64,000 nucleotides of DNA from Stegostoma tigrinum (lineage: Eukaryota). The stretch covers positions 25,795,811 to 25,859,810 of the forward strand of contig NC_081381.1 in NCBI RefSeq assembly GCF_030684315.1. Reading direction: 5' to 3'. Position numbers and translations under genes: made by a program. The notes under the pieces were generated by a model. That model was given only the letters and a program-made list of their open reading frames with translations. It did no database searches and had not been told where the DNA came from. Of this stretch, positions 12,634 to 42,829 are shown in pieces (positions within the stretch are counted from its first letter, which is position 1; every line of letters starts with the position of its first letter).

Positions 12634-12722
12634 CTGTATTGCTCCAATGTTTTCCAGAAGTTGTTCAGTGTTAGAGGCTCCCACTAGCACAGAACTAACT
12701 CCCTCATTCCTTAAACACCAGG
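12634..12722 (-). CDS. KCNAB2: KCNAB2 coding exon, (A)[29 protein letters not shown]
   Basis: tttatcttacag|CCTGGTGTTT...AATACAG|gtttgt; 89 nt, phase 1/0. Confidence 0.98.
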
Positions 12723-13567: not shown

Positions 13568-13691
13568 GGAACTGCAGATGCTGGAGAATTCCAAGATAAT
13601 AAAATGTGAGGCTGGATGAACACAGCAGGCCAAGCAGCATCTCAGGAGCACAAAAGCTGACGTTTCGGGCCTAGACCCTTCATCAGAGAGG
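13568..13691 (-). mobile_element. Solo PLE 3' terminus with intact hammerhead core (13659-13686)
   Basis: Essentially identical to about 42710-42833. Confidence 0.9.
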
Positions 13692-14039
13692 GCTTTGGTT
13701 TGGTACGTGCTTCATTTTTTACCTACTTTCACGTAGAAATATTAATATCTCTAAACAACATAACCTTAGAAGTTTTAAAATTAAATGCAATAATCCTTTG
13801 GATTAAAACCATAAAAGATTAAGAAATATCTTTGAATGAACAGATTCTGGATCACATTTTGAAATTGAAGAATGTCAGGATATCGGGACAGTCTGAAACA
13901 GTACTTCACCATTGCCCCAGTCTGTAACTCAGCTATCATATTTCACTATGGCAGCAGTCTCAGGCTGAACTATATGCTCAGCAATCTCAGCATCATACTT
14001 GAGCTCAAGATGAGTTTCTGAACTCATATCTTCTCATCA

Positions 14040-14635
14040 CAAAGGCTGTCCACTTGTAAATAAAATAGTCCTCCACCACTCCATCTCAATCTACTTGCTA
14101 TGGAACTCTCATCCAATCCACTGTCATCCCTGAATTCAGTTAGTCCAATGATCTTCGAGCTGGCCTCTATCTTCCACACTCATATCAACCTAAATTGCTA
14201 CCTCTTCTTTTTCCAAGTTTCACTCACCCATCGCTTCGCACTTCAGTGACCTATGCTGGCTTAGGTTCCTAATATCTCAGATTTAAAAGTTAAATTCTCA
14301 GCCTCATACTTAAATATTTCTCTGGTTCACTCTTAACTCTACAAACACATTTTCTTTGATACAATTTTCTTAAAATTCTTAGCTTTGCTTTGTCCCACCA
14401 CAAGCAGCATGTCCTCAGTTGCCTACACTCAATGGTCTGAAGGTGCTTGTATATGTTTTTCTGGTCTTCACGTGTATGTCCTTCTTAAAATTTCCCCTCA
14501 AGAATGACCTTGTCAGCCCAGCCTTTGGTTAATCCTAATCTTGCCTTTTTTTGGTTTGGCTTCCATTTTTCCTGAGGACTCTGGTACCTTGGGATGTTAT
14601 TTTATGTCAAAGGTATTGTACTTGGTTGCTGTTAA
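14040..14635 (+). mobile_element. Old L2 LINE 3' fragment
   Basis: Ends ccttgggatgttattttatgtcaaagg...gttgctgtt; similar to 18150-18760. Confidence 0.6.
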
Positions 14636-15291
14636 AATTCACAAGGAAGAACCAGGGTATCCGATTAAATCAGAATAGCTAAAAGACAGGGGCTTCACTG
14701 ACCAGACACATGAGGTGAAAACATTGGTTAAACCCTAACCTTGCTCCCTGTCAGAATGAAGACTTTTTACAGCTCTTAATCTGGGCTGAATTTCAAATGT
14801 GACAGAACGCTCCTTTATTGCAATTTCACCTGCCTCAGTGAAATGTCTAGTATTTCATTCAAAGTTAGATTTCAGTCTAAAATTTTGCATGTGAAAAAGC
14901 TGGAACATCTATTCTGATGTGGACTGACTTCACCAAATGACAAAAAAATGCTTCTAAACATAGTTGCAGAATGCAGATTACTACAAGAACAAATTCTGAA
15001 TCAGCATTCCAATCAGGAGCATCATTTCGTACTGGTGCATATTTGAAATTAGAATGAATTGCATCTAACTTTATAACCACTAATCTAAGTGGTCAGAAAA
15101 TCACATTCATTGTGTGCCCAAATTTTTTCACTTATGCTTCCAAAAGGTGAGCCAGATGAAGGAATGCTGCCTGACACAGAATATTAGAATGATGTGGTGT
15201 CACAAAGTCGTAAAGAAAAAACTGTAGCTCTAGATTACTAAGAACAACAATCATTTTTCTCAATTTCCAGATAGCAATATTAAATCCTTAC

Positions 15292-15412
15292 CTATTGCTA
15301 ACTGAGGTAGAGTGCAGCTCAGTCGCTCTGCAATACCCTGCAGTTCTTTTAGTTTTCCTTGCTGTCGTCTGCCTTCCTCAGTTAGAATTTTATCCTTCAA
15401 CCACTGGTAACC
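15292..15412 (-). CDS. KCNAB2: KCNAB2 coding exon, [40 protein letters not shown](A)
   Basis: aattacag|GGTTACCAG...GCAATAG|gtaagg; 121 nt, phase 0/1. Confidence 0.98.
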
Positions 15413-16049
15413 CTGTAATTATATTGTGACTCAGTTCACATTTATTTTCAAAGCTAGCAGCTAGCAGGTAAGACAGTACATCAAGAGGCGGAATCTTAAA
15501 AGATTACCCTAATCACACTCTCTCAATGGATTGGTGAGATAGTTATACTGTCTATGGTGATGGTGACTTTCAAATAGTAATCCTAGCAACAGTCTATGAA
15601 TGTATTCGCCTCACATTTCAAACCAGTTAATAAAACTTTACATTTCTTTATATCAGTGTGCAGATTTCTGTTTAACTTCGAATATTCTAGTTGTTTCAAT
15701 TCTTAGATTCATTTCACTTTTGTCTTGAAATATAATGAATTTTAATTTTAAAAGTTATTTCACTGAAAGGAAACTAAAACAATTCTTCATGTGTGAATTG
15801 ACTTCAAATGACAGTAAAATCTTCTAACCAAACATATTCACAACAATTTTATCTTGACATATATGCATCTCAACTACGGTGAAGTAACCGTGTTACAAAT
15901 GATTTAAATTCTAGGTTTATAGTAATGAACTATCAAAATCCTGGAATTCCCTTTACTAATAGCACTGTGGTGTGCTTACCTGGCCTGTGATGCCCATATT
16001 CCATAAACAAACATTAAAAAAAGTCAATACAAAGACATTCCTACTGTAC

Positions 16050-16144
16050 CTTTAGGGAAGCTCGAGAATAAGGAGGAACCCCTGCATCATATTTTCCAGA
16101 GATAATGCCACAGGCCAAAGGGGACCATGTCATTGCACCAACAC
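16050..16144 (-). CDS. KCNAB2: KCNAB2 coding exon, (G)[31 protein letters not shown]
   Basis: ttcctctttgttgaag|GTGTTGGTGC...CCTAAAG|gtacag; 95 nt, phase 1/0; NADPH-binding WSPLACG motif. Confidence 0.98.
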
Positions 16145-16599
16145 CTTCAACAAAGAGGAATAAAATCAGAAAAGTAAGTTACACTTACTCAGCTCGAGTA
16201 ATGCACTGGGAGCAACTGTTACTGCTTGGGAAAGCAGCCATATGGTAATCTCAGCAGAACTAGGGTAGAAATTGGGGGTTTTCACCCTTGAACAAAACAG
16301 CTGCGCTTTCAAACTCTAAATCCCCATCTAGAATTTGACTCTTCATTAATAAGATATTTTGCAGTTACAGATCTACTCAACTGCAAACCTCACTACTACT
16401 TTTGAAACCATCATTTCCGTTAAAAATATTGTATTTTATGCTGTTTCTCTAGTTAGTCCCCTGATATGGCCCTCACCTCCATTCCCGCAAGTCCAAAGAA
16501 TGCAGGCTGGAAGGGATTTTGAGGACAACTGGTTAAATGATTAACTACCAAACCTGCCTGGATCACATGAAGCACTATTGTATTCTGCTCACCTGTCTA

Positions 16600-18760
16600 A
16601 ACCACTCACTAATTTAGGAATAATTGGAATGCAAAGATAACCTCCAGCATCTTTTATCTGCTGCAAATACTCTTCTGAAACCTGTGTCTCCTCTATCTTC
16701 ACCTTCAACAAGAGCAGGAACTCACTGAATTCACTGTCACTAATATGGAGACCATCTGATCACAGCAGACTCTACCATTTCTCCAACCGTTTGGTCAAAC
16801 TCATCTAAAACTCCCCACAGGTTCTCAGGCCTAATCTCACATCAATCTTTATTTTCTCTCTCCCCAATATTCTCTCTGAACTAATTTCATTGATGAGGCC
16901 CATCTCCTGTCTCTCATAACTCTTTTTCCAATGTACTGCTGACCATACAACTTCCCTTCCTGTTTCCAGCTTTAACTTGTATCGTTCTCTCTCTCACTTC
17001 AGCTACTGTCTTTCAAATCTGCTGTCAATATCCCTCATTAAATAAAACCCTTGAGTTCTTCAGATTTGCAAATTAGTATCACATTTCCAACATTTCCTCT
17101 CCAAAATTCTTGAACATGCTACTGCCTCCCAGACTTTTCTCAGACTCCATATCAGAAACCCTCCGATAAGGTTTCTGCCTTAGCCATAGCATCAAACCAG
17201 CTCTTATCAAAGTTAAAAATGATATCCTGAGACAGACTAAAGTAACTGAGGCTTCTCGACCTGTCAGCAACCTTTGATGTGGCTAACTATACGAACCTTC
17301 TCCAACGCCTAACCACTATTGCCCAGCTGGAGAGGACTCTTGTTGACAATCACCCAACATAACTTTATTACCCAAACCTGTGTTGCTACCTTTGATATGC
17401 GGCTCCATGGCAGTACCATTCAAAAACACAGCACCAGTTTCCACATATATGTTGATGACAAATAGCATTATCAGACCATTACATTTCTAAACCTTGTTAC
17501 TCTATAAATTGTCAGATTGATTTGACGATATCAAGCACAGAATGAGCAGAAATCTCCTCTCATTAAACATTGAAAAGATCAAAGTTATTCTTGATCCTCT
17601 CAACAAAACTTCATTACATAGAACATTACAGCACAGTACAGGCCCTTCGGCCCTCGATGTTGTGCCGACCTGTCATACCGATCTGAAGCCCATCTAACCT
17701 ACACTATTCCATGTACATCCATACGCTTATCCAATGACGACTTAAATGTACCTGAAGTTGGCAAATCTACTACCCTTGCCGGCAAAGCATTCCATTCCCT
17801 TACTACTCTCTGAGTAAAGAAACTACCTCTGACATCTGTCCTATATCTTTCACCCCTCTATTTAAAGCTTGCCGTCACCATCCTAGGAAAAAGGCTCTCC
17901 CTATCCACCCTATCTAACACTCTGATTATTTTATATGTTTCAATTAAGTCACCTCTCAACCTCTTCTTTCCAATGAAAACAGCCTCAAGTCCCTCAGCCT
18001 TTCCTCGTAAGACCTTCCCTCCATCCTAGTAAATCTCCTCTGCACCCTTTCTAAAGCTTCCAAATCCTTCTTATACCTAGGCATCTAGCCATTGATTCTT
18101 TGGTTTGGCAACTATACTAGGCTAAACCAGACTATCGGTAATCTTGGTGTCCAACCAAGTTCACTTATTTTCACCTCAGCAAGATTGTCTGGCTCCACTC
18201 CTCTCTAGCTCAGCTACAACTCTATTGGCATAAACCTGGCTGCCTTAGGACACTTGAGTGGCCTCCCATGTTTTATCCTCCCTACATTTGAGATCATCCA
18301 AATTTCTGCAGCCCATGTCATAACTCTAAGTACCATTCACCTATCACCCCCATCCTTGATGAACTACATTAGCTCCCAGTTAAGTGATGCCTCTATTATA
18401 AAATTTTCACTCTTTTAAAATAAAAACCTCCATGGCTCCATGGCATTGTGCCACCACCCTCTCCCATTTCAGTAATCTCTTTCAGTCTCACAACCCTCAA
18501 GTATCCACACTCCTCTATTTTGAGCCCTTGGAATATCCCCGATTTTGACTGCTCCATTATTAGTGCTTTCAGTTGCTAAAACCTTTTCCTTTGGAATTGC
18601 CTCCTTAAATCTTTGTTTTCTTCTCTCTTCTGTTTTCAGATGTTCTTTAAAATTACATCCGATTAAGCTTTTGGCCATTTTCACTGTTACCCAAATTAAA
18701 TGTTGCTTGATTATGATTCTGAAGTGTATTGGGAAATTTTATTACATTAAAAGTTGTTGT
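16600..18760 (+). mobile_element. Old L2 LINE interrupted by a young CR1 3' end (about 17616-18075, minus)
   Basis: cttctcgacctgtcagcaacctttgat (LDLSAxFD), tatgttgatgacaca-like (YxDD), L2 tail. Confidence 0.8.
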
Positions 18761-18976
18761 GATGTACAAAAAGTGCTTAAAGGTAAATCAAACACTCAAA
18801 AACTTTGAAATCTATTTTCTCAGTTTCCAGATTCTTTGCTTGATACTTGGTTAAAGGGCCAAAGATAGTTCAGCACCTGTAGAAATATACTCCAGGACAA
18901 GTAGAGAAATTTTGATAAAAGAAAGAAATTATTCAAAGTAGGTAATTTTTATTTACAAGTTGGCAAACATATTTAC

Positions 18977-19097
18977 CAATCTTATGGAAGAGCTCTGGAA
19001 GCTGCACTTCAACTTTCTCTCTCTGGAAGAGGTGATATTCAGCTTGTTCACATATTGGGGGGATGAGGTTAAATTGTCGAGCCACTGAGTAAGCTTC
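18977..19097 (-). CDS. KCNAB2: KCNAB2 coding exon, [40 protein letters not shown](G)
   Basis: ctctgtcctttag|GAAGCTTAC...AAGATTG|gtaaat; 121 nt, phase 0/1. Confidence 0.98.
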
Positions 19098-22000
19098 CTA
19101 AAGGACAGAGACAGTTACAGAATAATTTGGTATCTTGAAAGAGGAATCATCAAGCCTGCTTTTCCAACAGTTTCTGCTCATAAAAACAAAATCAATGTTC
19201 AGTTGCAGTATACCTTGTTATTAAGCACTTGAAGAGATGGAAGCAAAAGATAAAAATGGAAATTCATCAATGGTAAATTCAAGTAAGTAAATTCACCACT
19301 GTCTTATCAGATCACTTTCTCATTAGAGAGATGACCGGTGCTGGTTTAACCTATATGGTCAACAAGCCTCAGGTGAGAGGAGAAGTTGAGAAGGATAGTG
19401 CTTCATGGTAACCGCAGACAGTAACTGGAACTGAATCCATGCTGTTGGCATCACTGCACTGCAAAACAGCTGACATCAACAGTAAACCTAGAACAGTTAC
19501 TAGGAATAAATTCTTGAATCAAAAAATGCTGCTTGGAATAATTTACCAAAGTAACAGAAGCAAAACATACCGATTATTCAAAATACATTCGGTTACCACA
19601 CTGCAGTGTTAATGTGTGGTAGAAGGGCAGGGATATACTTTTAACATGTAGGATGCTGCACTGAAGAAAGAACGCAGACTCTGATAGACCAGATAGAATT
19701 TTCTGATGCCTAACTTTTCACTTGTTCTGACTAACTGCCAAGGGCCTGTGCTATCAATGTGACTAGATAATTATCAAACAAAAATTTTCCATTTTCTTTG
19801 CATTACATCTGATCTACATTATACCCTTGGATAACAAAATTATACTAAACATTCACAGCACATTTTCAAACATGACAGTCTCATAAATACTAGCGCTGTG
19901 ATGGTTACAGTGTAGAATTCTGGCAGTCTTACAAGTACCACAGTCACTTATCTGTTATGGGAGGAAACATGGTACTACAAATTCCAATGTTCTAAATCAG
20001 AAAGAACCTGGCTATTCATATTTTACACTTACTTTGAGGTCTCAATTCTGCACCAGAAACTAGGCTCATAGCTCATATCTCAGTACTTTACAGAATGGGG
20101 TTGATGATTTGATGCCAATGAGCCTTTGTTAACAGTCAAATTTGCCTTCCCTGTCCCAAAACCAATCCATCAGAATTTTATGTGAAATCCCTTTTTTTTG
20201 TCTAAGGCAATCTCAGGTGAGGAGATGTGGGTGATGGAGAGAGTTTTTAACATAAAAATTGCTCATGGTGTGGTGAGAGTCACTGGCAACACTAGAACTA
20301 TGATCTAGCTATTATTGCTAGTTGCATGTTTAATAGTACCTAGTCAATGGTGATGGTGTTTGGTGGATTACCCAAATATGAGGGAAATGAGTCGAGGTCA
20401 GTAGAGATATTGTTATGAACTCAGAAATATAGTAGCTGTAGTCTCTGGCTTTTTAAAAATCCAATACAGTGACTAATGCAGTGGAGAAATCTAACTAAAT
20501 GGTGCAGCTTTTAACAAATGAACGGGGTTCATTAAATAAAAAATTGATACCACCACAATACTTGAACCACAAAATTTCCGTGCAATTGAAACACAGTCTT
20601 CACAAATATATAGCCTGCTGGCTTACAAATTCTTTGGTCAGTGACTCTGTTGAGGGAGAACAGGCTCATTCAGTAAGGAAGAGGTGAATCTAGTTTGCAA
20701 TCATGGCATCAAAGGCATGGATCCTTAATATCATACTACTGTACACCATCACAAACACAGAATTTCTTAAGGCCAATCAAATTGCACCTACTCTCGCAAA
20801 AGGTTTCAAAATGTAACTAAAATTGGCACAAATGGGACTAAATACAATTGTATTGGCTGCATTTCTATTAATAGTTACTTCTTGGCAATTAAAATTTAGA
20901 ACTATTTCTGACATCACTGTTGCTTTTAGTATCAGTCTGTACATTTTCTATGGATCATGCTGTTGAGGAAAAGGCATATTTAAAAATTCCAAAATAGTGA
21001 CTTGTAAAAGAATAATTGTTTGTGAAAAGAAATACACACTGTGATTTACATGCAGCATAAGGAAGAAATTTAATTTTAAAACGTAATTATATTTTAACCT
21101 GTGTAGTTGTACGCACAAGAGGAAAATGGAAGCTATTCTTTGGAAGTCAAATAGGAAAAAAATGATAAATATAACTCAATGGAGGTACAGAGGGATCAGC
21201 ACTCTATTTTAAAACATACAATCCTAAGTGATGAATGGTCCACAAGGTGAATGCTCATACAAGTCTCTAGTTGGATCCTTGAACAACATTTAGCGAGGCT
21301 TAGGAAGATGCTCTAGTCACATAATAATTAACAAATGTGGAGATTGTGAAGTGAGAATTAAAATTTGGGCTGCACATTTCACATGTATTAGTTGAGGAAT
21401 AACTGTTCAGAAAAATCAATGGGGATTCATCTGTACAGAAAAAGCAAAAAGGAGTTCAGTTATTGGAACTGTTTTTCGGAATGATTCTTCATCAAGCCAT
21501 GATGAAGGGCCCAGACCCATAATCTAGGACAACAGTAAATATGAACACCATTGTACAGAAGGTGATATATATTAACACATGACTCCAAACTCACATGTGA
21601 AGAAAATCAGCATATTGTGGCAGGCAGTGAATACTGAGGGAGAAGATTAAAATTCAAAAGGATGCTTAAAAGGTGACTGAGGAGCAATAAACAGAAAGGG
21701 GCCTGTGAACAACTCAACTCAATCACTGGAAAATCCCTCTGGATTGTATCACATTTGAGAGGGGTGCTTTTAAGAAACTCTAATCATTCCCAATCAAATT
21801 TGGGTAGTAGTGGCTAGGGCAAAACTAACAATTCTTTGTGGTTTAAATCTTCAGACAGTGAGTCAGCAGAAAGCTGTGCAATTCTTCCATTTCCTAATGC
21901 AAGGGATTGACATCTCTATAGTCACTACTCAGCACAGACTGTTTACTGTGCTATTAATACTTTTGCATTTGGTGGTTTAGAAAACTTGACACATGCATTA

Positions 22001-22507
22001 CCTTTTGAAACTAGAAACACTGACACTTTATGTTTATAACCAAAAAAGTTAAAACATTTTCATATCACTGTACATTATTAATGAAAATCTATTCCGCAAT
22101 TGCCAACTTTACATAATATGAATAATTAATAAAATCTGAAATAAAAAAATTAGTTACTTCCATACAATCATACATAAAATTCCACAGGTAAACCTATTGT
22201 GACTACTGTTATTTTATTAATATAGTCACTATCTCGGTGGAAATGTTCTATTCGGAAAGCTGAATTATTGCAGGATGCTGCAGCATTAAACTGTTGCTAT
22301 AGAATGGTCTGACACTGCTCCATATGCAATAGCATAACGTGAACTCAGTTGGATCTAGAAGCAAAGAATTTTGGATGTTAACCGAAATTCCACTTCTCTT
22401 GACACAACAGAAATATTGCCTCAGGGCACTGTAACATTAATTATTTCTGGAAAAAGAGAGCAAAATAATTAATTTTTCTGAAGTTCAAACTCCTGTACTG
22501 TTCTTAC

Positions 22508-22593
22508 CATGATCTCCATCGCACTCCATCGTGAGGTGCCCCAGTACATAGCCATTCCTTGGTTAATTACATGTGTCATTGCTCTCACGGTTT
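22508..22593 (-). CDS. KCNAB2: KCNAB2 coding exon, (E)[28 protein letters not shown]
   Basis: ttctctcctggcag|AAACCGTGAG...GAGATCATG|gtaaga; 86 nt, phase 1/0. Confidence 0.98.
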
Positions 22594-23899
22594 CTGCCAG
22601 GAGAGAAGAAGCCATTTATATATAATTTTTTTAGTGACTTATCTGGGCTGCTGCATAATATGCCTGTATATTGCTACTGGTTTCACAACAGGGATCTTTT
22701 TGCCGCAAGACATCTTGCAAGCAGTGTACATCAGTCTTGCAACAGTGGAATCATGAGGCATTCTAATCTTTTACTTTCCCTCAGAAGTCCTTCACATTGC
22801 TGGTCTACTAAAATAAATAAGGGAGGAATTTGTGTGATAATTATGATACTTGAGTAAATGTGTGATAGAAGGGAAAGAAAATTAAAAGAAAGAATAAGCC
22901 AATTTTTCTGTATTTTCTGAAATATGTGAAAAAAAAAATGGAAATGTGTGCAAAATAGTGAATACAACTGACAAATAATGTCACGTTAAGAATTAACAAA
23001 ACAAAAAATTGTTTGTCCGAGGATCGACTCAAGAGACAACATCCCTTTTTTGAAGGCCTACCTACAACAGATTTCACAATGCAATACCTGGTAAAAGCAT
23101 GACAGAATACAAAGATCAATGGTATATCAAAGAAAAAACTGCTAAAGTAGGGACTGCTGTGGGATATACACTGGCCTTTCACTTTTTAGGTCCTGGATTC
23201 TCATTTATTTCAGTTCTTATTAGATACAGGCCTATAGTACAAAACACATAGTAAATCAGTGATCTCAATGAAGCCTTAGTGTGGGAAATGGAAAAGTCCC
23301 ACACATGTTCAGCATGGTAGTCTCTTCTGAGGTTAGATCTGAGGCAGTTTGCTTGGCCAGAATAATTTTTAATTCTGCTATAATATACCCCACCTAAAAG
23401 TATTTTCTGAACACGGTGCCTGAAATGGTCATGTTTCATTCCCAGCCCTTGTATCCTCATTTTAGTGAGCAGAATGTGATCTAATCTTTACGGTAACCAT
23501 TCAAAGACATTCTTAAAATTCTGTTTACCACTGTGCAGCTTCTAACTCAATTTTTGACATCTTCAGAATACAACTCTTTTTTGAGGAGGCCACTCAAATT
23601 TAAGTTTTAGGCAAAATTCCCATTAAGCTTAGCGATTCTAAAAGAACAAGATGACAAAAAAGTGGGTGTTCCTCACTGATAGAAGGAAAAGTATGGTTGC
23701 TCAGCTTTGACTCGTTGCACCTCTGTAAATCATAAAACCTCATCAAGGCCTTCAATATCATGTAAAGTGTCAATCTCAACTCAATATCTTGTTGCTGACT
23801 TAATAGGCAACAAGAAGTTTAAGGTTTACTCAACATCATGCACTATCCAAAAGATACACCGTAGCAACTAAAGTCTTTTTGAGCACTTCCTTAATTCAG

Positions 23900-24175
23900 A
23901 CTTCTACTATCTAGAAGGACAAGAGTAGCAGGCCCCTGGAAACACCACCATCTTTAAATATTCTTCCAAGTCACTAACTCAGAAGTAGATGCGTTCTTTC
24001 ATTGTCACTAAGTCAATACCTACAGCTTCCTACTTAACAGCATAATGGGAGCACCTTCACCACATGGACTCCAGCAGTTCAAGGTGGCAGGTCATCATCA
24101 TCTTCTCAAGGGAAGTTAGAGGTGAGCAATGAATGTTGGCATTGCCAAAAATACCCAAATCTTGTAATTGAACAC
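23900..24175 (+). mobile_element. 3' end of an unclassified shark LINE; same family at about 53500-54540 and 15935-16020
   Basis: Shared ctagaaggacaag...caacagcactgtgg...cccatatcccatgaa tail. Confidence 0.65.
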
Positions 24176-24214
24176 AAACAGTTTTCAAGATTTCAGAATA
24201 AAATCTAACTGGAC

Positions 24215-24480
24215 ACTTCAACATCAGTTTTACTTTTTGGACGAGATGTTAATCTGAAACCTGGACTACCATCTTGGATGAATACAAAAATTTCCAATAG
24301 CATTATTTGTTGAAAAGCTGATTCCTCTGACCAACCAACATCACAACCAAAATTGCCAAAAAAACAGCAGGTCATTCATCTCATTGGTGTCTATGATGCC
24401 TTGTGCATAAACTGGTTGTGCATTTTACTTCTCACAGTGCCAATTTAAAAATTAATCAATTCCAGGACATTTTGCTTACA
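24215..24480 (+). mobile_element. DeuSINE (SacSINE1-like), degenerate
   Basis: Reverse-complement similarity to 59350-59720. Confidence 0.55.
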
Positions 24481-26809: not shown

Positions 26810-27040
26810 GCAAAAATAAAATACCACAGGTGCTAGAAATTGGAAATAAAAACAGAAATTTCTGCAAATACTTAGCAGGTAATGCAGAATCTTTAGAGAT
26901 AAGCACAGTTGACATTTCAAGTCAATGACTTTCCACACAATTTGCATGAATCTGACCCTGATGAAAGATCACAGATTTTTGCTCCGAAGATGCAACCTGT
27001 CCTGAAAAGCTTTTGTGGCATTTTCTGTTTTTATTATGTC
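26810..27040. mobile_element. Old palindromic PLE mini-element, third tail family, with hammerhead remnants
   Basis: aataaaaacagaaa...ttttctgtttttatt inverted ends; CTGATGA on plus and GAAATGTC on minus. Confidence 0.6.
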
Positions 27041-30000: not shown

Positions 30001-30569
30001 CAATTTTGTTCACACACATTGTCTTTATTTTAGCTGTTATTGGGACAATCAGCAATGGTGACTGCAGTACATAGTAAAATTTTACACCAGGACCACCTTA
30101 GGTAAAAGCAGTACCAGTCTATCACTAAAATTAATTTATGATAGCAGCTGCAATAATCAATTATTAATGCAATGAAACCTGCACTAAATGGTCACTTGCA
30201 GCAATGCAACTATCACATCCATAGATGTCAGTAATATATCATGACATGAATTAAATTCTAATGGTAAAGTTAGGCTGTGATTACAACATTTCATTTAACA
30301 TGTCTTAAATCTGCCATGATTCTATTTAGGTAGCATCCTCAAAGTGTGGGTATGGAAATAAAAGTATATTTCAAATTTATTTGATACAGCTTTTAAAAAA
30401 AACTTCCTCGCATTTACCCCTGGCAAGTGCCAACTCTTTGGTTGAGTATTTTCATTAGCACTGTCATCCGGCATCTCACCCATGTTGCCGTACTTCATGT
30501 GACCAATGGAGAGAATATTCAGTTGTGGTAAGCATATCACAGTTGAGCCAGAGCCTATTTTGTTTATAG

Positions 30570-31260
30570 AGTTGTAGCGTCATAGAGCACAGAAACAACT
30601 CTTCAAGCCAACCAGGTATCGTAAACTGAACTAGGCCCATTTGCCAGTGTTTGGCCCTTATCCTCTAAATCTCACCTATTCCTGTCCAAACATCTTTTAA
30701 ATGATGTAGCTGGACCTGCCTCTACCACTTCCTTGGGCAGCTCATTTCATAATATGTACCATCCTGAGAGAGAAAAAGCTGCCCCTCAGGTTCTTTCTAA
30801 ATCTTTTTCTTCTCACCTTACACCTATGCCCTCTAGTTTTGTACTCCCCCTACCCTTGGAAAAAAGGCCTTGCTTATTCATCTTATCTAAAGCCCTGATG
30901 ATTTTATAAGTCTTATAAGATCACCCCTCAGCCTTTGGCCTTTCAAAGAAAGAAGTCCTAGGCTATCCAGCTAACAAAGTGTGGAGGTGGATGAACACAG
31001 CAGGCCAAGCAGCATCATGTGTTCATCCAGCTCCACACTTTGTTATCTTGGATTCTCCAGCATCTGCAGTTCCCATTATCTCTCGGCTATCCAGGCCTCT
31101 CCTTAGAACTCAAACACCCCAGTCCTAGCAATATCCTAGTAGTTTCTTTTCTGTACCTTTTCTTGTTTAACAACATCCTTCCTATAGCAGTGCAACTAGA
31201 ATTGTATGCAATATTCTAAAAATGGCCCCACCAATGTCTTGTACTGCTGCAACATGACAT
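30570..31260 (-). mobile_element. CR1 3' fragment, host of the 112-bp PLE insertion
   Basis: CR1 tail and RT C-terminal homology; similar to 60860-61400. Confidence 0.85.
30973..31084. mobile_element. 112-bp palindromic PLE tail element lacking the hammerhead, inserted in CR1
   Basis: Perfect 10-bp TSD ggctatccag at 30961-30970 and 31085-31094. Confidence 0.88.
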
Positions 31261-32569
31261 CACACCTACAGTAGCCACCAGCTGCCTGGATCAAAAGTTA
31301 TTTCTGGGAAGGAATTTCTCCCAACATACAAGCTTTTACACCATGCTTTCTTTTAGGGGTTATTAAACAACAATCAGGGATGGAATTCCAGCTGATTTCC
31401 CCTCCCTAACTGACATCAAGTATTAGACCCTAATGAAGATCAGCTAACCCAACCAAACTTAGGATTGTACCTGGCACCTTTATTGCCTAAAATATTCAAC
31501 TGCTCATCAGGAAATCTCCCTGTATCAATGTCACCCTCCTAAATAAATGTGGCTCAGTGCTCCCAGGTAAAATGATGATCCTTTAACCAATGCTTCACCT
31601 CATCATCACAAATTTATTTACACACTTGAACAACTTTTATTTAGGACAATGCTAAGTTCTAACCTAAATCTAGATTGGAATGACATTCACATTCCATTAC
31701 AAAACATAATGCAATTTATAAAAGACCAACACAATTTCTATCAAATCCTCAGTATGATAAACTTTTTTTTCTCTTCCAGGGTGTGAAACTATTTTCACAT
31801 TTGAACTGTAATCTGGAACTCCCAAATTTCAAGCTTAAGACTGTATTTTATTTTGCTCACCTTTATTTAGCTTCTACATAAATTTGGTTAAGGTTTCAGA
31901 CTTTATGTTTCACACTAGTGGATTGAAGATAAGTTTAATTACCAACACATCATCAAGGGCATATGGTTCACACTTCAATTAGTAGTAAAACTGTATGAGC
32001 CAGATCAAGGAACAGGTGGTGCAGAAAACTGGATTACTTTTGTAATGAATAGTAAAACCATTCTTAACTTTTGGCTCAATGTTAGGTAACTGAACTTACA
32101 ATTGTTCTTCTTAATTCCACTGCATCTGTCAAAATAATCACACTAGCAGATAATTGCCTGTTTAGTAAAGGGGTTAATAAGGTTGTAGGTTTCATATTGA
32201 CTAGTAGTTCTTGCCATGTTAAGAATCTATTTTATGTTTAATTTACAAAGATGGGCTTTGTTTGATTTATATCAGTTGTAAAACACAAAAATCAGTGTCA
32301 GGTGGCCTCAAGATGCAAACCTTGGGAAATAGGGGGATGGATCAAGAAATATAAATTTCTAATCCATTTTTTTGATGTAGTAAGCCTGTGACATCTAATG
32401 GCTCTGTGTCAGTAATGCAGAACATATTCGGGGTTCTGATGAGGGAGAAGGAGGAAGAGGAGGTGTGCATGGAAACTCTAAGGTTTTAAATGAAACGGAA
32501 CAACTGAATTCTTTGCTGCTTAATCAGTGACCAGAAGAACAGGTTTCAGTTCAGTGATTTCATACTTAC

Positions 32570-32617
32570 CCAAGTTTAGGTACAACTGCAGCAACCTCCT
32601 CCAATCCCATTCTAATT
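32570..32617 (-). CDS. Candidate unannotated 48-nt in-frame cassette exon, ELEWDWRRLLQLYLNL
   Basis: cacctgcag|AATTAGAATG...AAACTTGG|gtaagtat; consensus donor, length divisible by 3, open in the required phase 1/1; no homology support known to me. Confidence 0.35.
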
Positions 32618-33353
32618 CTGCAGGTGCACCGTTCAGAATGGAAAATGGGAAGGCTGTCTGCTACCCTTCATGAGATTCATTTTGGGAATACATTGATTTA
32701 TATTTACTAGGATTATAAATCATAACAGCCTATTTATTACAGTGCTCAAAGTACCAAAAAGACTAGCAAGAAGGAAATGAGGAGGAAAAAGCTCACAACG
32801 GCAAGAGAAAATAAAATAAATTAGCACCACCTTACAAACATTTATTTCAAAACACAGCCAAAGCAAACATTCTGGTAGGATGAGATAGGAAATCTAATTT
32901 CAAACAAAATTAGATACAAGACTTGTGAAAACAGGCAGTTAACTTTCTAAGCAGAAGTTCATTCTATGCAACATTACTGTACACAGCCCTACCATTCACA
33001 GAATGACAGGAATTCAAAATTAAATACTATCAAACCTAAAAGCATGTAGTAAAAGGAAACTCAATTAAAGTGCTGACGCCTATTGGGCTGGCAATTGGAC
33101 AACATGCATGTTTCAAGAATGAGGAATAGGCGCTCACAAATGAAGAAAATTAAAGAAAAAGCAAAAGGGTAGGACAGAATCAGTTTTATTTACTTGCAAG
33201 ATGTTTTTATAAGTCAGGTAACTTGCATTTTATGGGGAAGTTACTTCTGTGGGTGATAGGAGAGGAAGTAGGAGCAGAGTGAACGAACAATCTGTCCCAT
33301 AAAATGCCTCAGAAACAGCTATGTATTAATACTCATTCTTGGGTACTGTGTAC

Positions 33354-33398
33354 CTTCAATGATGAATGTTCTTGATTTTGAAGAACTAAATGGATCCC
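33354..33398 (-). CDS. KCNAB2: KCNAB2 45-nt alternative cassette exon, GDPFSSSKSRTFIIE
   Basis: tcttcttctattaccag|GGGATCCATTTAGTTCTTCAAAATCAAGAACATTCATCATTGAAG|gtacac; symmetric phase 1/1; peptide matches the insert I recall from the long human KCNAB2 isoform. Confidence 0.92.
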
Positions 33399-35139
33399 CT
33401 GGTAATAGAAGAAGATTTAAGAAAACCAGAGTTTACAGCTGAAGGTACATACATTGCAGAATTTAGGGCATGGGAGAGGTAAGAGTAAATTTTTTATATA
33501 AATATACATACGTACAACTTCCCAGTTCAGAAAACAGTAGCCAAGTGAAACATCTTATTATAAACACATTCATTACAAAGTATACAAGCTGCAAAGGCTC
33601 AAATGCACAATGAGCAAAACAAAAATAATGTATTCTATCAGTTGAGATATTAAAGTGTTCAGTTTAAAAAGACACTATCCCTTTTGTTTACCTACATTGA
33701 GTAGATTTTAAATGCAGTACCAATCAAACCTACTCGGTGATACCAGCCGGAGGGGTGAAATGTAGCATGAACTGGCTTCAATGGATGAGTTTATGGTAGG
33801 ACTGGCAGTGATAAAAATATCAGCCACAGTCATAGATTTGGATTCAAATGATGCATACAATAAGCTTCAGAAAGATTGCCAAATGGTTAAAAAAAACCAC
33901 AGTATGACTAAAATAACCAACCATTTCAGCCTGCATTCCATGCACTTCCAGTTCTGGTCTGAGAGCCTGTCACTCTACCATTGGTTTCAGTCAGACACCT
34001 GTAACCTGGATTTCTTTACCTAAGGCTCACTGCCTCGCGAAGAAAACTGAAAGGATGCATGTACTGAAACAAGTTGCCCATGCCTATGAAAATTAGTCAG
34101 AGAATACATTGTGCCTCTGTGTCTCGCACATTCAGAAGCTTCCTCAAATCCACATATTCAATTCCCTTTCAAAATCCTTGTTTGGTGTTAATTTCACCCA
34201 TTGCCCCTGTAAAGCACTTTTAAATATTTAAAGAGTCTACAATTTTTGTTGTAAGATTGACCTGTTCACAGATGTTATTACAAACCTCTGGAGCAGGTGC
34301 CTAATGACAAATTTCCTAAACCAATTAGTGCAGGAGGGTTTTGGTGCAAAAACTGTACACTTTGGATGAAACAGCAATCAAGTTAATGCTGTTCATAGCT
34401 CTAATCAGTGGGGGGCAAGCGAACAAAAGTTTTAAATTTTCTAATTAACTTTCCAATGGAACAATTTTGTCTGAGTTAAACAGCCACAGTGGTGCCAGAT
34501 TTAATCAATGTGCCTTTGGGTTGGGGGAGGAAGAGGTGGTCATCCAGAGTGTCAGTTCCTGGTTACTACAAATGCCAAAGTTCAATAGTCCAGTGACAAC
34601 TACTGTATAAAAACGTTTGATGCTAGATTTGATAGCAGCTAACTCAGCATGGACTTGAGATCAAGTCTCTATAATCCAATACTTTTCCCTTTGAGGATCT
34701 GTTATGTTAAAGAGCTGTAATCCAGACAGTTGAGTAAACCTGTCATAGGAGACGCAAATTACAAAATAAACACTCAATTGACATTCTTAGAAACGGCAAA
34801 AATTTGAACCTGTAAATGATAAAAACTGCTTGCAATGATCAGCATTTTTACCTTTGATTTCACTACGGGGCACCTAACATTTGAAAACATTTAAGCTCAG
34901 CAGTTGGAACTGTGGTAGATTTCCAGCTACAATGGGTGTAGGTTTTGCCTTTATATTGTTGGGCCAACTGGTGACAGGAACTTTGAACTTGGACACCATA
35001 CTGCCGTCATAAGCAGTTTGTATTAAATAAGAAGCTTTTATTAGTAGCTGGTTTTAGGAAAGTAAGTTAACCCAAGTGAAACAATATTTTTAGTACTTTT
35101 GTTGAAGTCAGAAGCTTCAGGATTCAAATCCCTTTCCCA

Positions 35140-35490
35140 ACCCATATCAAAGTTTGAAGTGATACAAATCATCCATGGAAAGGATGCTTCCTCTTATAGC
35201 TGAGTCTAGAACTGGGGGATACTTTAAAATCTAGGGGTTGCCCTTTTAAGACAAAAGATGAGAATTTTTTTTCTTTCATAGGGCTGTGTGAATTTGTAAT
35301 TCTATCCCAAAAGGCAGTGGGAATGGGGTTATTGATATTTTTAAGAAGGTGGTAAATAGATTCTTGTTAGGTAAGTTAATCAAATGTTATTGGGGCAAAT
35401 GGAATACGGAATTTGAAACAAAAATCAACGAAGATCTTATAAATGGCAGCACAGATCAAGGGGCCATATGGCTCCAGGTTCATATATCTG
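35140..35490 (+). mobile_element. CR1 3' fragment
   Basis: gagtctagaact...agattcttgttaggtaag; CR1 3' end. Confidence 0.7.
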
Positions 35491-38400
35491 AAAATGACAA
35501 TGGCTCCCCAACCTCTGATCCCACTGCATGCAGTACTAGGCAAACTCCAAAGCCTCCAACTGGCATCTTCCAGTTGCTAACAAAGAACTACAGCCATGAG
35601 AGGAGCTGTTAAATTAGTTGGTGAATCCTTCCATTACTTCACACAATTCCCCAAGGGAGAAGTGTGAAGATCCAAAGCAAGAAACCAAAATGAACATGTG
35701 TAACCCAGCCAGTCAATTATCATCTTTGTAAAATATTCAAGACACCTTACAAATCTGCAAAAACATCACAATCATGTGAACCAGTATTATGCTACTGAAC
35801 TTACACAAACTATCTTTTCACAACCTAAATTTTATTGTCTATTATCATTTAAATGGTGCATTTGTAATTCCATTTCAAATTGTATTTGTAATATCGATAC
35901 TAGGATTGTAGGGTTAAAGTTTGAATCCTTGACAGGTATCTGCTGAAAATTAGCTCGGAGCATCCATCCAGCCAGACACGTGTGGTTTATGTAGGACTAC
36001 AAAAGGGACATTCTTTTATAAACCATTTAATGTATCTTACATCATATGGACTAAATGGTGGTGCCCAACAGCACTATCTTTAGTCAGTTTTACCGACTAC
36101 TCGGTTGATTGTAACAGAATATTTTTGTAATAAATTTCAAAAACTTTCACTACACGAATTGTTTAGGCAAACCTGACAATTTAGAATGACATTAGTATTT
36201 TGCTGGCATGTTGAGTGATATATTAATATACAGAATTATAAAAACCAACACAACTTTATTTCTATTTATGAGAAAAACAGAGGAAGCAATAAGCTGCAAA
36301 AAGTCTACAAATAATGCCACTGCAGTGGAAATTGTGTTGATGTCATTAGAACTAAACACCTTCATCAATGATGAGCATCCATGATTGTCCACAATGGATG
36401 TGGTGCTTTAATGACATGAACGATAGTACACATAGTCGAATATCACAACCTTTATTATGCATTCATCTATATCCAGAAACATTACCTTTCAGCCTAAATC
36501 ATGAATGATGATGAATGGGAATGGTTGCTGACATTTTCCGTGTCCAGTAAAGGAATATGAAAACCAATTTTAGTGCAGCAAATACTGCCCCAGCTGAGAT
36601 CAGCTAAGTTTTCCTTGTTCACTAAAAATGACAGGGTGAGAACAGGGGTGCAAGATCTATTTCCAAATCCTGTCAAATAATTTCAACAAAAGCATGATTC
36701 TGAGATTTTTAAATGGCTTAATGTTGCAATTTTCCGAACATGAACTGCTCCTATAGAGATGTCAGTCGAAAGAGGAAAAACAAACCTGCCACTTTTGTGA
36801 AAATTGTACAATGTCACACTACAAAAGAAAAACGTACATGAAGTATCAAGTTGGTGGCCCTTAAAGTAAACTACTGGCCTAAATAATTTGTGTTAAGTAA
36901 TTCACTTATATCTTTGTAAAATCATTATGGACTTCTGGCATACAAGTTTATCAATGTTTACCAACTTGTTTACAAGAATTCTGCTTATTAAAATAAAGAA
37001 ACATCAGTCTGGCAAAGAGTATTTTCTACTTCAGTTCCAACATTAAGCACTCCCAGAGTGTGGTTCAGACAGGCTGATGCACAGCAAAATACCATAATTT
37101 GATCTGACAATTTATCTCCTCCTCATTCTCAGGGGAATACATTTTATTGAACTGTACAACAATCTTCCATTTCCTACACCAGTCATCCAGGAGCTCGATA
37201 AATGGAATTGGTTGTTGCAACCCAATTACTGACAAATGCCTGTAAACTTAGTGCAGTACATCTTGTCCAGTAAACTGAAGAAATCCATTTCACATGGGAC
37301 TCTCATAACCAACACATGATGGAGATTATTTTCACATGGTCCAGTCTGGAATCCCATTGTGCCACATGCATTATGTGCCTGCTTACCTAAATGTCAGGCT
37401 CTAGTTCTTATCTAAAGGCACTCTCCCCTATATTGTTCTGAGTTCCTCTTTGTACAGATAATATAATCTAAGATTCCCACAATATTCACAAACTCCAACC
37501 AGTCTTGCTCAATTACATGAATTGGGCATATCATGACTCAGCCCATTGTCTGCCTGGAGACATGTACTTTGTGAACTGAATGATGGTTGACAAAATATTT
37601 TACTTCAGCCCTTGACTAAGGCAGCACTTTTACATCCAAATCCAGACAACAGACGTGGAAGTAGTAATCTTGAACACACAGTGACACCCAATTTTACAGT
37701 TTTAAAGTTTCTACATTAAAAGTAAATATAACAGCTCAAAAATGGCCCTGTCCTTTTGACTTCAACAAATGAACATCAGCAAAAACTATAAATAAGTAGT
37801 ATAGTATGTAGTATCCCAACTTTTACTTGGTAGGAAAATTCTTTCTTTAAACAAGCAATCCACATGTAGTGAAGAGTCTATGTGGGCAATTTCTCCCAAG
37901 TCGCTACTAGGAAACACATGACATTAGGCCAGAAACATTTCTCTCTCACTCCCCCATCATCTACAAAGGAGAGTGTGGACACGCTCCCAGGATGAAATCA
38001 ATAATATATGTTAATAATACTATGGTATTGAAGAAAATTTACATATCCCATCGTATACTATCATTTCAAGTGCTCCAGTTCAAAATAGTGCAAAATTTTA
38101 AATAAATGTCTAATAAAGAGTCACCTAAATTGAATCTCTCCACCTTAGAGTTCATAGTCGTTCCTGGAAACAGGAACAACACATCAAGTGATTGGAACTT
38201 TCGGCCACTGAATGACTTATAGACTAAAATGACTATTTTGACTCTTGTTCACGATTAGTTAGCTGATCTCAGATAGGCCAGTAATTGGGGTCAAGCAATT
38301 GGGTCCAGTGACACGAGGCTAGTGAAAAGAACAAGGATGTCCTTCAATTATTTAGTGCATGTCAGGGTACTTGAAGGCTACTGCTATTAAGAACTTACAT

Positions 38401-38763
38401 TTCCAGAGAAAAGGTACAGAAAGAGAAGAAAACTTGGATATGACATTGGAAAGTACCTCTATGTAAGTAAGCATGTGCGCTATTAATTAATATTTTGTAT
38501 CTGCTCTTGCATTTTAAATAATCAATCAGATGAGCCTGGTAATTCTTTTGGCAATACCAGGGTAACTTCAGTTTAGCACTGAGTAAATAGACTACTAATT
38601 TTTTATAAGATGTGTGTCAATCTACATTTCTTGAATTTTTAGTGCAGAGGTTTCTGGAAAGGAGTGGGGAGTTGGTGAAGATTAGAATGAGTGAATGAGT
38701 GCATTATACAACTAGCAGATTAAAGAATAATAATATTTCTTCACTGATGCCGATGCAACTGAC

Positions 38764-38850
38764 CTTCCATAGGTGTGTTTGGGTCCGGCCTGTTTGCGAA
38801 TACCACATCCACATACTCCAACTGCAAGCGCTCAAGAGAAGCCTTCAGTC
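38764..38850 (-). CDS. KCNAB2: KCNAB2 coding exon, (G)[28 protein letters not shown]
   Basis: gcttttgcag|GACTGAAGGC...ATGGAAG|gtcagt; 87 nt, phase 1/1; KASLER and PDPN are beta2-diagnostic. Confidence 0.98.
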
Positions 38851-38886
38851 CTGCAAAAGCAGAAAGATATAAAAATATATATATAA

Positions 38887-38902
38887 ATACACACACACAC
38901 AC
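38887..38902. repeat. Short (CA)n tract just upstream of the acceptor at 38851
   Basis: Direct reading. Confidence 0.8.
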
Positions 38903-39073
38903 AAAACGGATAGTCTGGCAATTTTATGATGCCTTGCTTTGCTTGGAATTTTATGTGGTGAGAAAAATAAATACTGTAATTAGGGCTTTAAAGTTAAAAG
39001 AACAACTACTTATTTTGAAAGGTGACTTTCTTGTGGAAATGTCACGATTTGCAAAAATGGGCTGATAGAACGG

Positions 39074-39240
39074 CAGTGGAGGAACACACCAGGCCAGGCA
39101 GCATCAGTGCAGCAGGAAAGCTGATATTTCAGGTCAGGACCCTTCTTCAGAAATGAATCAACATTATCTTTCCTGCTCCTCTAATGCTGCTTGGCCTGCT
39201 GTGTTCCTCCAGCTCCACACTGTGTTATCTCTGACTCCCT
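39074..39240. mobile_element. Palindromic PLE mini-element with near-intact hammerhead (39123-39150, minus)
   Basis: CUGAAGA-A-GGGUCCUGACCU-GAAA-UA-UC; imperfect TSD ctgatagaacgg / ctaatagaatgg. Confidence 0.8.
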
Positions 39241-39610
39241 CTAATAGAATGGGAGGCCTTCTGTGGTTTCTTCAAGACCACAGCATCATTTGCTGTTGAC
39301 CAGATTAAGGCTAAAGAAAAGGCAGCATCATTTATTTAGCTTTTTGCAACATTAAATCTGTTATCTGTGCCTGCACTCAAGATAAGCCTGTCTCCCTCCG
39401 CTTTCTTTCTGGCCAGGAACATGTTGTTTTCTTTTTTAACAAAGATTCAAAATTTGATTTATTACTACCGTGTCAAAAAGGTAGCGATTACTGTCGGTGA
39501 TGTATCATAAAGATTCTTAATATGTTCACATCAAGTGAAGATTTCATGCTCTAATAAAGGAAATAACCAATCATTGATAACAGAATTTTTGCATTAATGT
39601 AGCATCCTAC

Positions 39611-39654
39611 CTTCTATAATGTGTTTTCGGGATAGCCCTCGCTCAGTTTCTGCC
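39611..39654 (-). CDS. KCNAB2: KCNAB2 coding exon, (K)AETERGLSRKHIIE(G)
   Basis: tttcgcttgcag|GGCAGAAACT...ATAGAAG|gtagga; 44 nt, phase 2/1. Confidence 0.97.
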
Positions 39655-40228
39655 CTGCAAGCGAAACATAGATCAGAAGTGTGGATTATTCAAGAATTAA
39701 TCCTCAGTAATAGGTCTGGTTAATCCAAGTTAGATGACATGCCCAAATATTACCAAGGAAGTTATTTAATTTGTGCATATAAAATTTCACAATGGCAGGC
39801 GTGCAGAAATAGCAGACCTGTTTCAGAAGCATTTTTCTTTTGGAACTTTAAAACATCTGATATATTTATTGAGCTACACAGATCAATCCGATGCTTGGTT
39901 TCTGGTCTGTTCTGAGGTAACTGAACTTGGGCAGAATGGCAATATGAAAGCCTTATCATTCCACTATAGGAATGAAGGCTAAAAATTATGCAGATGGACG
40001 TTGATATCAATCAGTTCAAACCCGGTTGTGACGCCTCCAAGGAGTAAACAGTCAACACCAATTTCTATGTAGATACTTCTATAGTACACCTGAGTAAATT
40101 ATGGAACTGAACAACAAATTGTGGATATCCTTGCCTTGCAGCAACTATAACCAAGAATACAGTGCTTTAAGAAAACAGGCACACGATTACAGTGTCCTTC
40201 AAGGCTTAAAAACATTCCAAAGTACTTC

Positions 40229-41085
40229 ATGACCATTCAACGCATCATCCTCGGCCTCTTCTGCCAACTGCAATCTGACCCCACTCTCCATGACTCCCTT
40301 ATCCTCTCCACAAGAGTCCCCACTAGCCCCACCACCCTGGCACTTTTCCCTGCAACCGCAGGAAGTGCTACACCTGCCCCTATACCACCCCCATCTCAAA
40401 CCCCAAAGAAAATCTTCCATGTTAAACAGCTGATCACCTGCACATCTGCTAGTGTGATATATTGTATCTGCTGCTCCCGATGTGGCCTCCTCTCCATCAG
40501 GGAAACCAAGTGGAGGCTTGGAGACTGCTTTCTGAAACACCTACGCTCAGTTCATGACAAACGACTACACCTCCCAGTTATGAACCACTTCAACTCCCCC
40601 TCCCACTCCTTGGACGACATGTCTATTCTGCCTCCTCCAGTGCCACAATGATGCCACCCAAAGGTTGCAGGAATAGCACTACATATCTCGCTTGGGAACC
40701 CTGCAGCCCAATGGTCTCAATGTGGACTTCACAAGCTTCAAAATCTCCCCACCCCCGACCTCATCTCAAAACCAGCACAGCTCGTCCCCGCCTCCTTGAC
40801 CTGTCAGTCTTTTCTCCTATCTATCCGCTCCTCCCACCTCACTCACCAACCCCCACACCCACCCCCTACCTACCAGCCTCATCCCCGGCTCCTTGACCTG
40901 CCCGTCTTCTCTTGACTGACCAACCCCAACCTAACTCCCCACCTACACTCACCTTTACTGGCTCCATCCTTGCCTCCTTGATCTGTCTGTCTCCTCTCCA
41001 CCTATCTGCTCCTTTATTCACTTTCCATCTGCCTCCTGACATCTCTCTATTTTTATCAGAATTCCCTTCCCCTCCCCCTTTGTTT
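40229..41085 (+). mobile_element. Older PLE 3' fragment (GIY-YIG and C-rich tail)
   Basis: 140-aa ORF with VIYCICCSRCGLLSIRET, homologous to the 45270-46190 region. Confidence 0.9.
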
Positions 41086-41105
41086 TATTTGCTGTGTATG
41101 AAGAT

Positions 41106-42250
41106 TGAACATAGAACAGTACAGCACAGTACAGGCCCTTTGACCCACAGTGTTGTGCCAAACACTAACCCTAATCCTAAAAGCCTATCTAACCTCCAGC
41201 CCTACCTTATACTATCATCCATATCCATATCATCCAATAGCCGTGTAAGTGCACCTAACGAGGCTGACTCCACTACCCTCTCCGGCAATGCATTCCACAG
41301 CCCTACCACTCTCTGAGTAAAGAACCTACCTCTGACATCTCCCCTGTATCTACCTCCACCCACTTTAAAACTATACCCCCTCATAATAGCTACTTCCAGC
41401 CTAGGAAAAAGTCTCTGATTGTCTAGTCTATCTACACCTCTGATCATTTTGTACACCTTTATCAAGTCACCACTCATCCTTCATCCTTCTAAAGAGAAAA
41501 GCACGAGCTCTCTCAACCTTTCCTCGTGAGACCTTCCCTCCATTCCATGCAACATCCTGGTAAATCTCCTCTGCACCTTTTCCAATACTTCCACATCTTT
41601 CCTGTAATGAGGCGACCAGAACTGGACATAATACTTTAGACGTTATCTAACCAGGCTTTTGTATAACTTCACGGCTCTTGAACTCAATCCCTTGATTAAT
41701 GAAAGCTAACACACCATAAGCCTTCTTAACAACTCTATCCACCTGGGTGGCAGCTTTCAGGGAACTGTGGACATGAACCCCAAGATCCCTCAGCTCCTCC
41801 ACACTGCCAAGAATCTTTCTGTGTACCCTGTATTCTGCTTTCAAGTTTGTCCTTCCAAAAAAAAAGAATCACCTCACACTTTTCAGGGTTAAACTCCACC
41901 TGCCACTTCAGTACAGCTCTGCATCCTTTCAATGTCCCATTGTAACCTAGAACAGCCCTCCGCACTGTCCACAGCGCGACCCACTTTCGTATCATCCACA
42001 AACTTATTAATCCACCCTTCCACTCCTTCATCCAAATCATTTACAAAAATCACAAATAGAAGAGGACCCAGGACAGATCCTTGTGGTACACACTCGTAAC
42101 TGAGCACCTTGTTGAATATTTTCAGTCCAATACCACCCTTTGTCTTCTAAGGGTCAGCCAATTCTGAATCTAATCTGCCACATTTCCCCCATCCCATGCC
42201 TCCTTACTTTCTGCAAGAGCCTACGATGGGGAAGCTTATCAAACACCGTT
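41106..42250 (-). mobile_element. CR1 LINE 3' fragment (RT)
   Basis: VPQGSVLGPLLFVIFVNDL...KFVDDTK; GRFFTQRVVGLWNALP. Confidence 0.93.
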
Positions 42251-42801
42251 TAGAGCGTCCGGATAGAATGGAAATGCGATTGACCTGATTGGTTCCAAGA
42301 ATTTAGGCACAAAAGTTAGGTCAGAAAGACTGGACTTGTTCTCTGCAGATTGATGGGAGAATTGGCAGAAACTCTAGGTTCAAGTACCAAACAAGAACAT
42401 CTCAGTCAAGGAAGATGCACAGCAGACCATTTGGCTACATAGGGTAACCATCAACCTGCAAATCCTTCCAAATCAGCTGTGTATTGAAAAGAATCTGGGA
42501 GCCTCAGAGTTGTAGATAACAATATCTAACACAGACAAATATATAGTTCCAGAGGAAATTAAATTTCATGTACCACCAATCCCAAGTTAATTGGAAGACA
42601 CCCAAATTAACCAGATTATGACAGGTTTACACAAGACTGTTCCCCATTAGGTGATCAAAAGATTAAGCAGTTGTTGCAATTCCTGCTCTGAACTTCATTC
42701 TGAGATAATGGGAACTGCAGATGCTGGAGAATTCCAAGATAATAAAATGTGAGGCTGGATGAACACAGCAGGCCAAGCAGCATCTCAGGAGCACAAAAGC
42801 T

Positions 42802-42829
42802 GACGTTTCGGGCCTAGACCCTTCATCAG
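42802..42829 (-). ncRNA. Minimal type I hammerhead ribozyme, intact core
   Basis: CUGAUGA-A-GGGU(CUAG)GCCC-GAAA-CG-UC; helix III reduced to the palindrome ACGU; located in the PLE terminal repeat. Confidence 0.8.

Follow-up and report, generated by a model that had tools for sequence, protein, structure and literature searches.

The minimal hammerhead ribozymes (min-HHR) of metazoan Penelope-like elements (PLEs) are type I motifs that reside in the pLTR, the terminal repeat of the element; they lack loop 3, are palindromic at 15.2-16.2, carry an extra base between A9 and G10.1 and a G10.1-C11.1 pair, and occur mostly as dispersed single copies (Cervera and De la Pena 2014, PMC4209133). The consulted parts of that paper state that in vivo evidence is lacking, and the role of the hammerhead in endonuclease-bearing Penelope elements has been called unclear (PMC8557442, likewise in part). 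Three other systems are close, as far as the consulted parts of the sources go: the Poseidon element PAc of Anolis, with a hammerhead near the start of its open reading frame (ORF) and uncut RNA as the main template (Frangieh et al. 2024, PMC11167929); R2, in which the cut of a ribozyme resembling that of hepatitis delta virus (HDV) sets the 5' junction of inserted copies (PMC3774820); and the non-LTR (long terminal repeat) retrozymes, short units derived from PLEs that are non-coding, bear type I hammerheads and occur in a cartilaginous fish too (bioRxiv 10.64898/2026.07.22.740005). Here, I examine a 64,000-nt stretch of the shark Stegostoma tigrinum (NC_081381.1, positions 25,795,811 to 25,859,810; the window hereafter), where PLE hammerhead cores lie in introns of a Kv-beta gene, probably KCNAB2. 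The reading favoured here, at a probability of about 0.7, is that the cores are inert passengers of these introns, while the ribozyme would cut a small share of the templates of the element itself.

The - strand of the window holds two cores of 28 nt with the same sequence (13659-13686 and 42802-42829). Both possess CUGANGA, GAAA, NUH, the G10.1-C11.1 pair, an extra base after A9 and a palindromic helix III, which is a loopless ACGU. They differ from the min-HHR in a helix II of 4 bp and, in families A and B, a helix I of 2 bp instead of 4-5 bp (4 bp in family D), a 2-bp helix I being known from Drosophila virilis Penelope (PMC4209133, in part). A third core, at 39123-39150 (-), is decayed, with U substituted for C11.1 and AUAU where the intact cores have ACGU. 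The earlier note had counted about ten motifs of three families: nine cores of three families (A, B and D) are indeed recognisable, yet only two are intact. What it had said of a loopless ACGU helix III and a very short helix I is borne out by the sequence, and its view of the cores as type I min-HHRs of PLEs, dependent on a partner via the ACGU palindrome, is right. An Rfam scan matched no hammerhead model and returned only chance microRNA (miRNA) matches on palindromic copies; the tail-only or short copies at 30965-31083 and 2174-2365 score as false miRNA hairpins of this kind. Two features of the family A core may be mentioned: its helix II is nearly self-complementary (13663-13678), such that two RNAs could form a 12-bp swapped duplex, and its CUGAUG can also pair with CGUCAG into an off-state hairpin.

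Judged from sequence, the cores are the pLTR hammerhead of a Neptune-like Penelope retrotransposon. In a full-length copy (L101), cores at 1396 and 4960 set out a 3564-bp unit, which begins a few bases ahead of the first core and surrounds one frame with reverse transcriptase (RT) and C-terminal GIY-YIG endonuclease; this frame can be aligned with residues 16-149 and 164-886 of a relative 889 aa long. The best named relative of the window frame is a shark protein (95%), and relatives carry PF00078 and PF01541, although a Pfam scan of four window frames matched no family. Partial-tandem pLTRs, inverted 5'-truncated copies and a 30-40-bp tail at one end characterise PLEs (PMC8557442, in part), and all are found in L101 and in the inverted insertion 42702-46287, a single 3.6-kb event with a 16-bp target-site duplication (TSD) and a 35-nt tail. 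Likewise, two internal RT start sites yield a 30-40-nt tail in PAc. The linker CNRRKCYTC of the window frame is a CX4CxxC, within the CX2-5CxxC that defines Neptune and Nematis (PMC8557442); this motif by itself, rather than a tree, points to a Neptune-like element, unlike the Poseidon PAc. The non-LTR retrozymes form tandem arrays in which every unit holds a core; the copies in the window, by contrast, arose by truncation and are either solo or inverted.

The 3' ends of copies were surveyed in 822 kb within 11 genes whose strand is known (flippase and Kv-beta loci) and which hold 90 young copies. These ends are bimodal (+88..+95 and +125/126, counted from C3), in keeping with the two RT start sites of PAc (PMC11167929), and fall at two fixed positions, some 65 and 100 nt beyond the cut site; hence most insertions longer than ~130 bp contain the core. 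The start codon of the element likely lies about 135 nt past the cut site, whereas in PAc the ORF begins inside the ribozyme (PMC11167929). In the window copy with the frame 44658-46241, and likewise in P0001, the element frame stays open across both the C-rich 3' region and the hammerhead; in L101 it does not.

The evidence for activity comes from the 5' ends of copies, scored in families A and B, with +28 as the first base after the predicted scissile bond. Whole-genome counts under matched filters are 78 at +26, 179 at +27, 645 at +28 and 219 at +29, and the drop on the left of +28 agrees with that expected from chance matches to an end at +28. By hand count, family A starts from +24 to +35 number 3, 5, 1, 5, 21, 3, 6, 5, 11, 11, 13 and 16 among 100 listed of 2093 genome-wide matches; in family B, whose pattern accepts two letters at +31, the corresponding series is 6, 7, 6, 3, 19, 7, 6, 15, 6, 10, 8 and 7 among 100 listed of 564. 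Among the family B matches listed, 16 of the 19 at +28 are strict and 6 have the non-palindromic AGCC. Among the 20 of 21 family A +28 loci examined, inverted junctions and solo copies account for 5 each, and the other 10 are tandem, jump or slippage products; two solo copies have TSDs (10 and 8 bp) that touch the cut-site base, and one locus is a trimer whose every unit starts at +28. After correction for the filter (about 0.25), exact +28 copies are estimated at some 2,600, that is, about 1% of ~300,000 genome copies, a total extrapolated from 80 in the 822-kb sample. The peak is thus probably, though by no means surely, a trace of in vivo cleavage of about 1% of element templates. No published report of such a peak for endonuclease-bearing PLEs was found in a survey of main texts without supplements that took in few subscription papers. 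The peak is the new part; core and element belong to a known kind. The peak also sets this genome apart from the lack of in vivo evidence stated in PMC4209133.

Two further observations concern these junctions. Concatemers of short units, each beginning at the cut-site base, occur at L153 (G000:C1:89140900-89141520) and L157, which suggests repeated template jumping after run-off at +28. An A often precedes the +28 junction, in the whole-genome +28 set too, and does so in 14 of the 21 listed family A cases, be it by non-templated addition or one-base microhomology.

A number of points weigh against cleavage as the source of the peak. AGC/AGCT recurs in the antisense arm of the element, and microhomology joins that end at +29 to +31 can score as +28; inflation of the peak in this way may occur and is the main doubt. 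Five of the 20 examined +28 loci are inverted junctions, and several prefixes in the whole-genome +28 set are alike. The +26 and +27 filters remove more A-rich flanks than the +28 filter does. Junctions rise again at +32 to +35 (11-16/100 each in family A, among the matches listed), which is not fully explained, and family B has 15 at +31. None of the 90 young copies in the unbiased 822-kb sample starts between +21 and +31, which fits a share of ~1% and adds no support. Helix I has just 2 bp, and the homodimer is predicted to take a non-catalytic fold. As for the lizard element PAc, no RNA-seq reads began or ended at the cut site, according to the consulted parts of PMC11167929. Lastly, the cleavage reading draws on genomic junctions, which are indirect evidence.

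Part of this could be accommodated if the cores were passengers everywhere and never cut in vivo, the peak being produced by AGC/AGCT microhomology or by stalling of RT at the folded core. The palindromic AGCT and the AGC of the antisense arm speak for it, as do the 2-bp helix I, the predicted off-state folds and the weakness in vitro of PLE minimal hammerheads (PMC4209133, in part). Nevertheless, it is considered unlikely: the peak repeats in family B, AGCC copies included, 15 of the 20 loci are not simple inverted junctions, and the TSDs of two solo copies adjoin +28. A stall at helix III, in turn, would make +27 the last base, yet +27 has 179 ends versus 645 at +28. Two other candidates were rejected, namely a 3' splice site, for which AG would give +30, and nested insertion into old copies, as L151, L153 and L156 have no core upstream. 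A second rise of 5' junctions spans +32 to +47 and consists mostly of inverted pairs, which may be trimmed +28 ends or deletions at the hairpin centre.

A second class of 5' ends lies just ahead of the core. In the 822-kb sample, the starts of 32 of the 90 young copies fall within -8 to +9, and more than 30 copies extend past -280. Among 100 listed of the 5453 genome-wide matches to a pattern for starts just upstream of the core, a hand count, which left about 18 rows of a T-rich variant unscored, gave 29 at -4, 8 at -5, 1 at -6 and none further upstream. Because 5' ends stop here and an extra G often stands in front (20 of 37 ends at -4/-5 among the matches listed), transcription of the element likely starts 4-5 nt upstream of the core and its RNA is likely capped; extra C letters at 13688-13690, seen in joints of two DNA runs, agree with a capped start. 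The same comparison bears on the idea that +28 is itself a second transcription start site rather than a cut end. A pyrimidine-purine (YR-like, C|A) step at +27/+28 and the location of PLE promoters in the pLTR (PMC6765202, in part) would suit it, but G precedes only 3 of 21 listed +28 ends (Fisher p=0.005 against -4/-5) and the site matches the NUH position of the hammerhead to the nucleotide. This origin is improbable, and both a stall and a second start fit the peak less well than cleavage.

Under cleavage of the element's own templates, the following course may be envisaged. The element would be transcribed from -4/-5 into a capped RNA, two cores of one transcript would pair via ACGU/ACGU, probably with help from the protein of the element, as protein assists the ribozyme in PAc (PMC11167929, in part), and the paired cores would cut after GUC, removing a 32-nt capped leader. 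RT running off the new 5' end would then give the copies that start at +28, about 1% of the total, while most templates would stay uncut. In host pre-mRNA, a core would be either paired with an inverted arm or alone, in an off-state hairpin and far from a partner. If so, cleavage would decap element RNA rather than define the inserted unit. This differs from R2, where the cut frees every element from a ribosomal RNA co-transcript (PMC3774820); the shark cut marks about 1% of copies and is downstream of a likely start of its own. The ~300,000 copies offer enough truncation points to read template 5' ends to the base, namely a start at -4/-5, likely capped, and an end at the scissile bond, likely without a cap; should the reading hold, junction mapping would allow ribozyme activity to be assayed from sequence alone in any genome rich in PLEs.

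Would host pre-mRNA be cut as well? The cores are sense with respect to the gene, since all seven Kv-beta exon matches in the window are on the - strand (span 12604..39692) and contigs of a related organism, putatively of RNA origin, join 12722 to 15292 with CT..AC ends, which places the core at 13659 in a 2569-nt intron. Together with the coordinates, this confirms that two identical cores and a near-intact one lie on the transcribed strand. Sequence identity of one exon favours KCNAB2 (40/41 identical to Kv-beta2, versus 38/41 and about 30/41 for the two paralogous loci).

As to abundance, the genome holds 92,176 exact copies of the 28-mer (45,976 forward, 46,200 reverse), one per 34.7 kb, compared with about 4,000-9,000 motifs in coelacanth and Xenopus (PMC4209133, in part). 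Two cores are unremarkable because 1.84 exact ones are expected per 64-kb window at this density (probability of at least two, 0.55). Local enrichment in KCNAB2 was rejected, the window density being the genome average. The statement of the earlier note that shark pre-mRNAs carry many half-ribozymes stands. The depletion of sense cores for which the earlier note proposed to look is not seen: in the 822-kb sample the sense and antisense counts are 14 and 16 for exact cores, 28 and 28 for descriptor matches, 46 and 44 for young tails, and 24 and 22 for intact cores of families A and B (95% confidence interval of the sense share 0.37-0.67); without the gene of the window, the ratios are 11:16 for exact and 21:22 for intact cores. 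Only a strong strand bias is excluded, and a mild one could remain. For 18 of the 24 intact sense cores (42802 included), the reverse complement of the core itself lies within 4.5 kb; another 2 have a covered flank and 4, among them 13659, are free; the antisense figures are 15, 3 and 4 of 22.

That note had further proposed that intronic half-ribozymes could be activated in cis by a second copy or in trans by PLE transcripts, which would tie the expression of transposons to the cleavage of introns in host genes. The ribozyme is probably active in element RNA, and the free sense cores would be candidate targets; the free class, 4:4 sense to antisense, is too small to test bias. Xenopus retrozymes are under-represented in introns, strand not being considered (bioRxiv 10.64898/2026.07.22.740005, in part), which tells against the passenger reading. 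In addition, placing an efficient engineered hammerhead in the intron of a fish gene reduces its mRNA by as much as 20-fold (PMC11856399, in part); by the same token, efficient cutting at the core density of the shark should have left an orientation bias. Neither such bias nor local enrichment, the marks of a host-functional intronic ribozyme, was detected, at limited power. Monomer folding of three core stretches gave no hammerhead fold, with z near 0. Cleavage of KCNAB2 pre-mRNA by these cores is unlikely because there is no orientation bias, 42802 is predicted to form a duplex with its inverted arm (-263 kcal/mol across 124 nt), 39123 to be locked in a 150-nt hairpin (39077-39226; -80 kcal/mol, z -9.35), and 13659 is alone and predicted to fold inactive: it is the sole core in its intron, its boxes are predicted to pair with each other, opening it would cost 5.8 kcal/mol, and the next free sense core is 54 kb away in a different intron (L100). 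The 4-bp intermolecular ACGU helix is also weak (-3.1 kcal/mol, predicted). The contigs of the related organism break off on either side of the 13561-13692 copy, none of those displayed bridging it, and are uninformative about its fate. The proposed coupling is left unsupported, as sense cores are not depleted and 18 of the 24 intact ones are covered by an inverted arm; host cutting at a meaningful rate is very improbable. Scarcely better placed is a germline variant, in which the ribozyme cuts in vivo and element ribonucleoproteins cut free sense intronic copies such as 13659 through a protein-assisted ACGU dimer; if true, transposon expression would trim thousands of host pre-mRNAs in the germline. 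The activity evidence found concerns the RNA of the element, not of the host, and as a feature of KCNAB2 the cores are ordinary repeat content, likely harmless passengers.

The insertion 42702-46287 would form a 1.6-kb, 97% perfect hairpin in pre-mRNA, and it is in inverted insertions of this kind that most of the intact intronic cores are found. Double-stranded RNA, through editing or splicing, is a more likely host effect of these than cleavage.

Table 1. Positions of hammerhead cores, Penelope copies and Kv-beta exon matches in the window
Feature	Position	Strand	Remark
Intact minimal hammerhead core, family A	13659..13686	-	Predicted cut between 13659 and 13658
Solo Penelope copy, 132 bp	13561..13692	-	Begins 6 nt 5' of core, ends at long-tail end (+125)
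Intact core, left arm of inverted insertion	42802..42829	-	Predicted to pair with antisense of 46197-46224 in pre-mRNA
Broken core (CUGA to CUAA)	46197..46224	+	Antisense to gene
Decayed core, family B	39123..39150	-	3' flank inside 150-nt hairpin 39077-39226
Broken core, family B	2278..2305	-	Past last mapped coding exon
Broken core, family B-type	63534..63561	-	End of a longer copy
Decayed core, family D	47870..47899	+	
Decayed core, family D	55876..55905	+	
Decayed core, family D	62579..62608	-	
Inverted Penelope insertion, left arm	42702..44345	-	RT 3' part, GIY-YIG, 3' untranslated region, hammerhead, 35-nt extra tail
Inverted Penelope insertion, right arm	44346..46287	+	97.4% identity with left arm over 1615 bp; without tail
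Target-site duplication, 16 bp	left 42686..42701, right 46288-46303		
Open frame, 527 aa	44658..46241	+	RT C-terminal part, CX4CxxC linker, GIY-YIG-type endonuclease
Kv-beta (likely KCNAB2) exon matches, first four	39609-39692, 38762-38854, 22505-22606, 18972-19103	-	Match limits, not exact splice sites
Kv-beta (likely KCNAB2) exon matches, other three	16050-16148, 15290-15424, 12604-12726	-	Match limits, not exact splice sites

No TSD was found around the solo copy 13561-13692. Fragments of other repeats lie at 9881-11328, 17616-18070, 41104-41633, 52828-53405 and 60842-61997, with frames that resemble RT C-termini of long interspersed nuclear elements.

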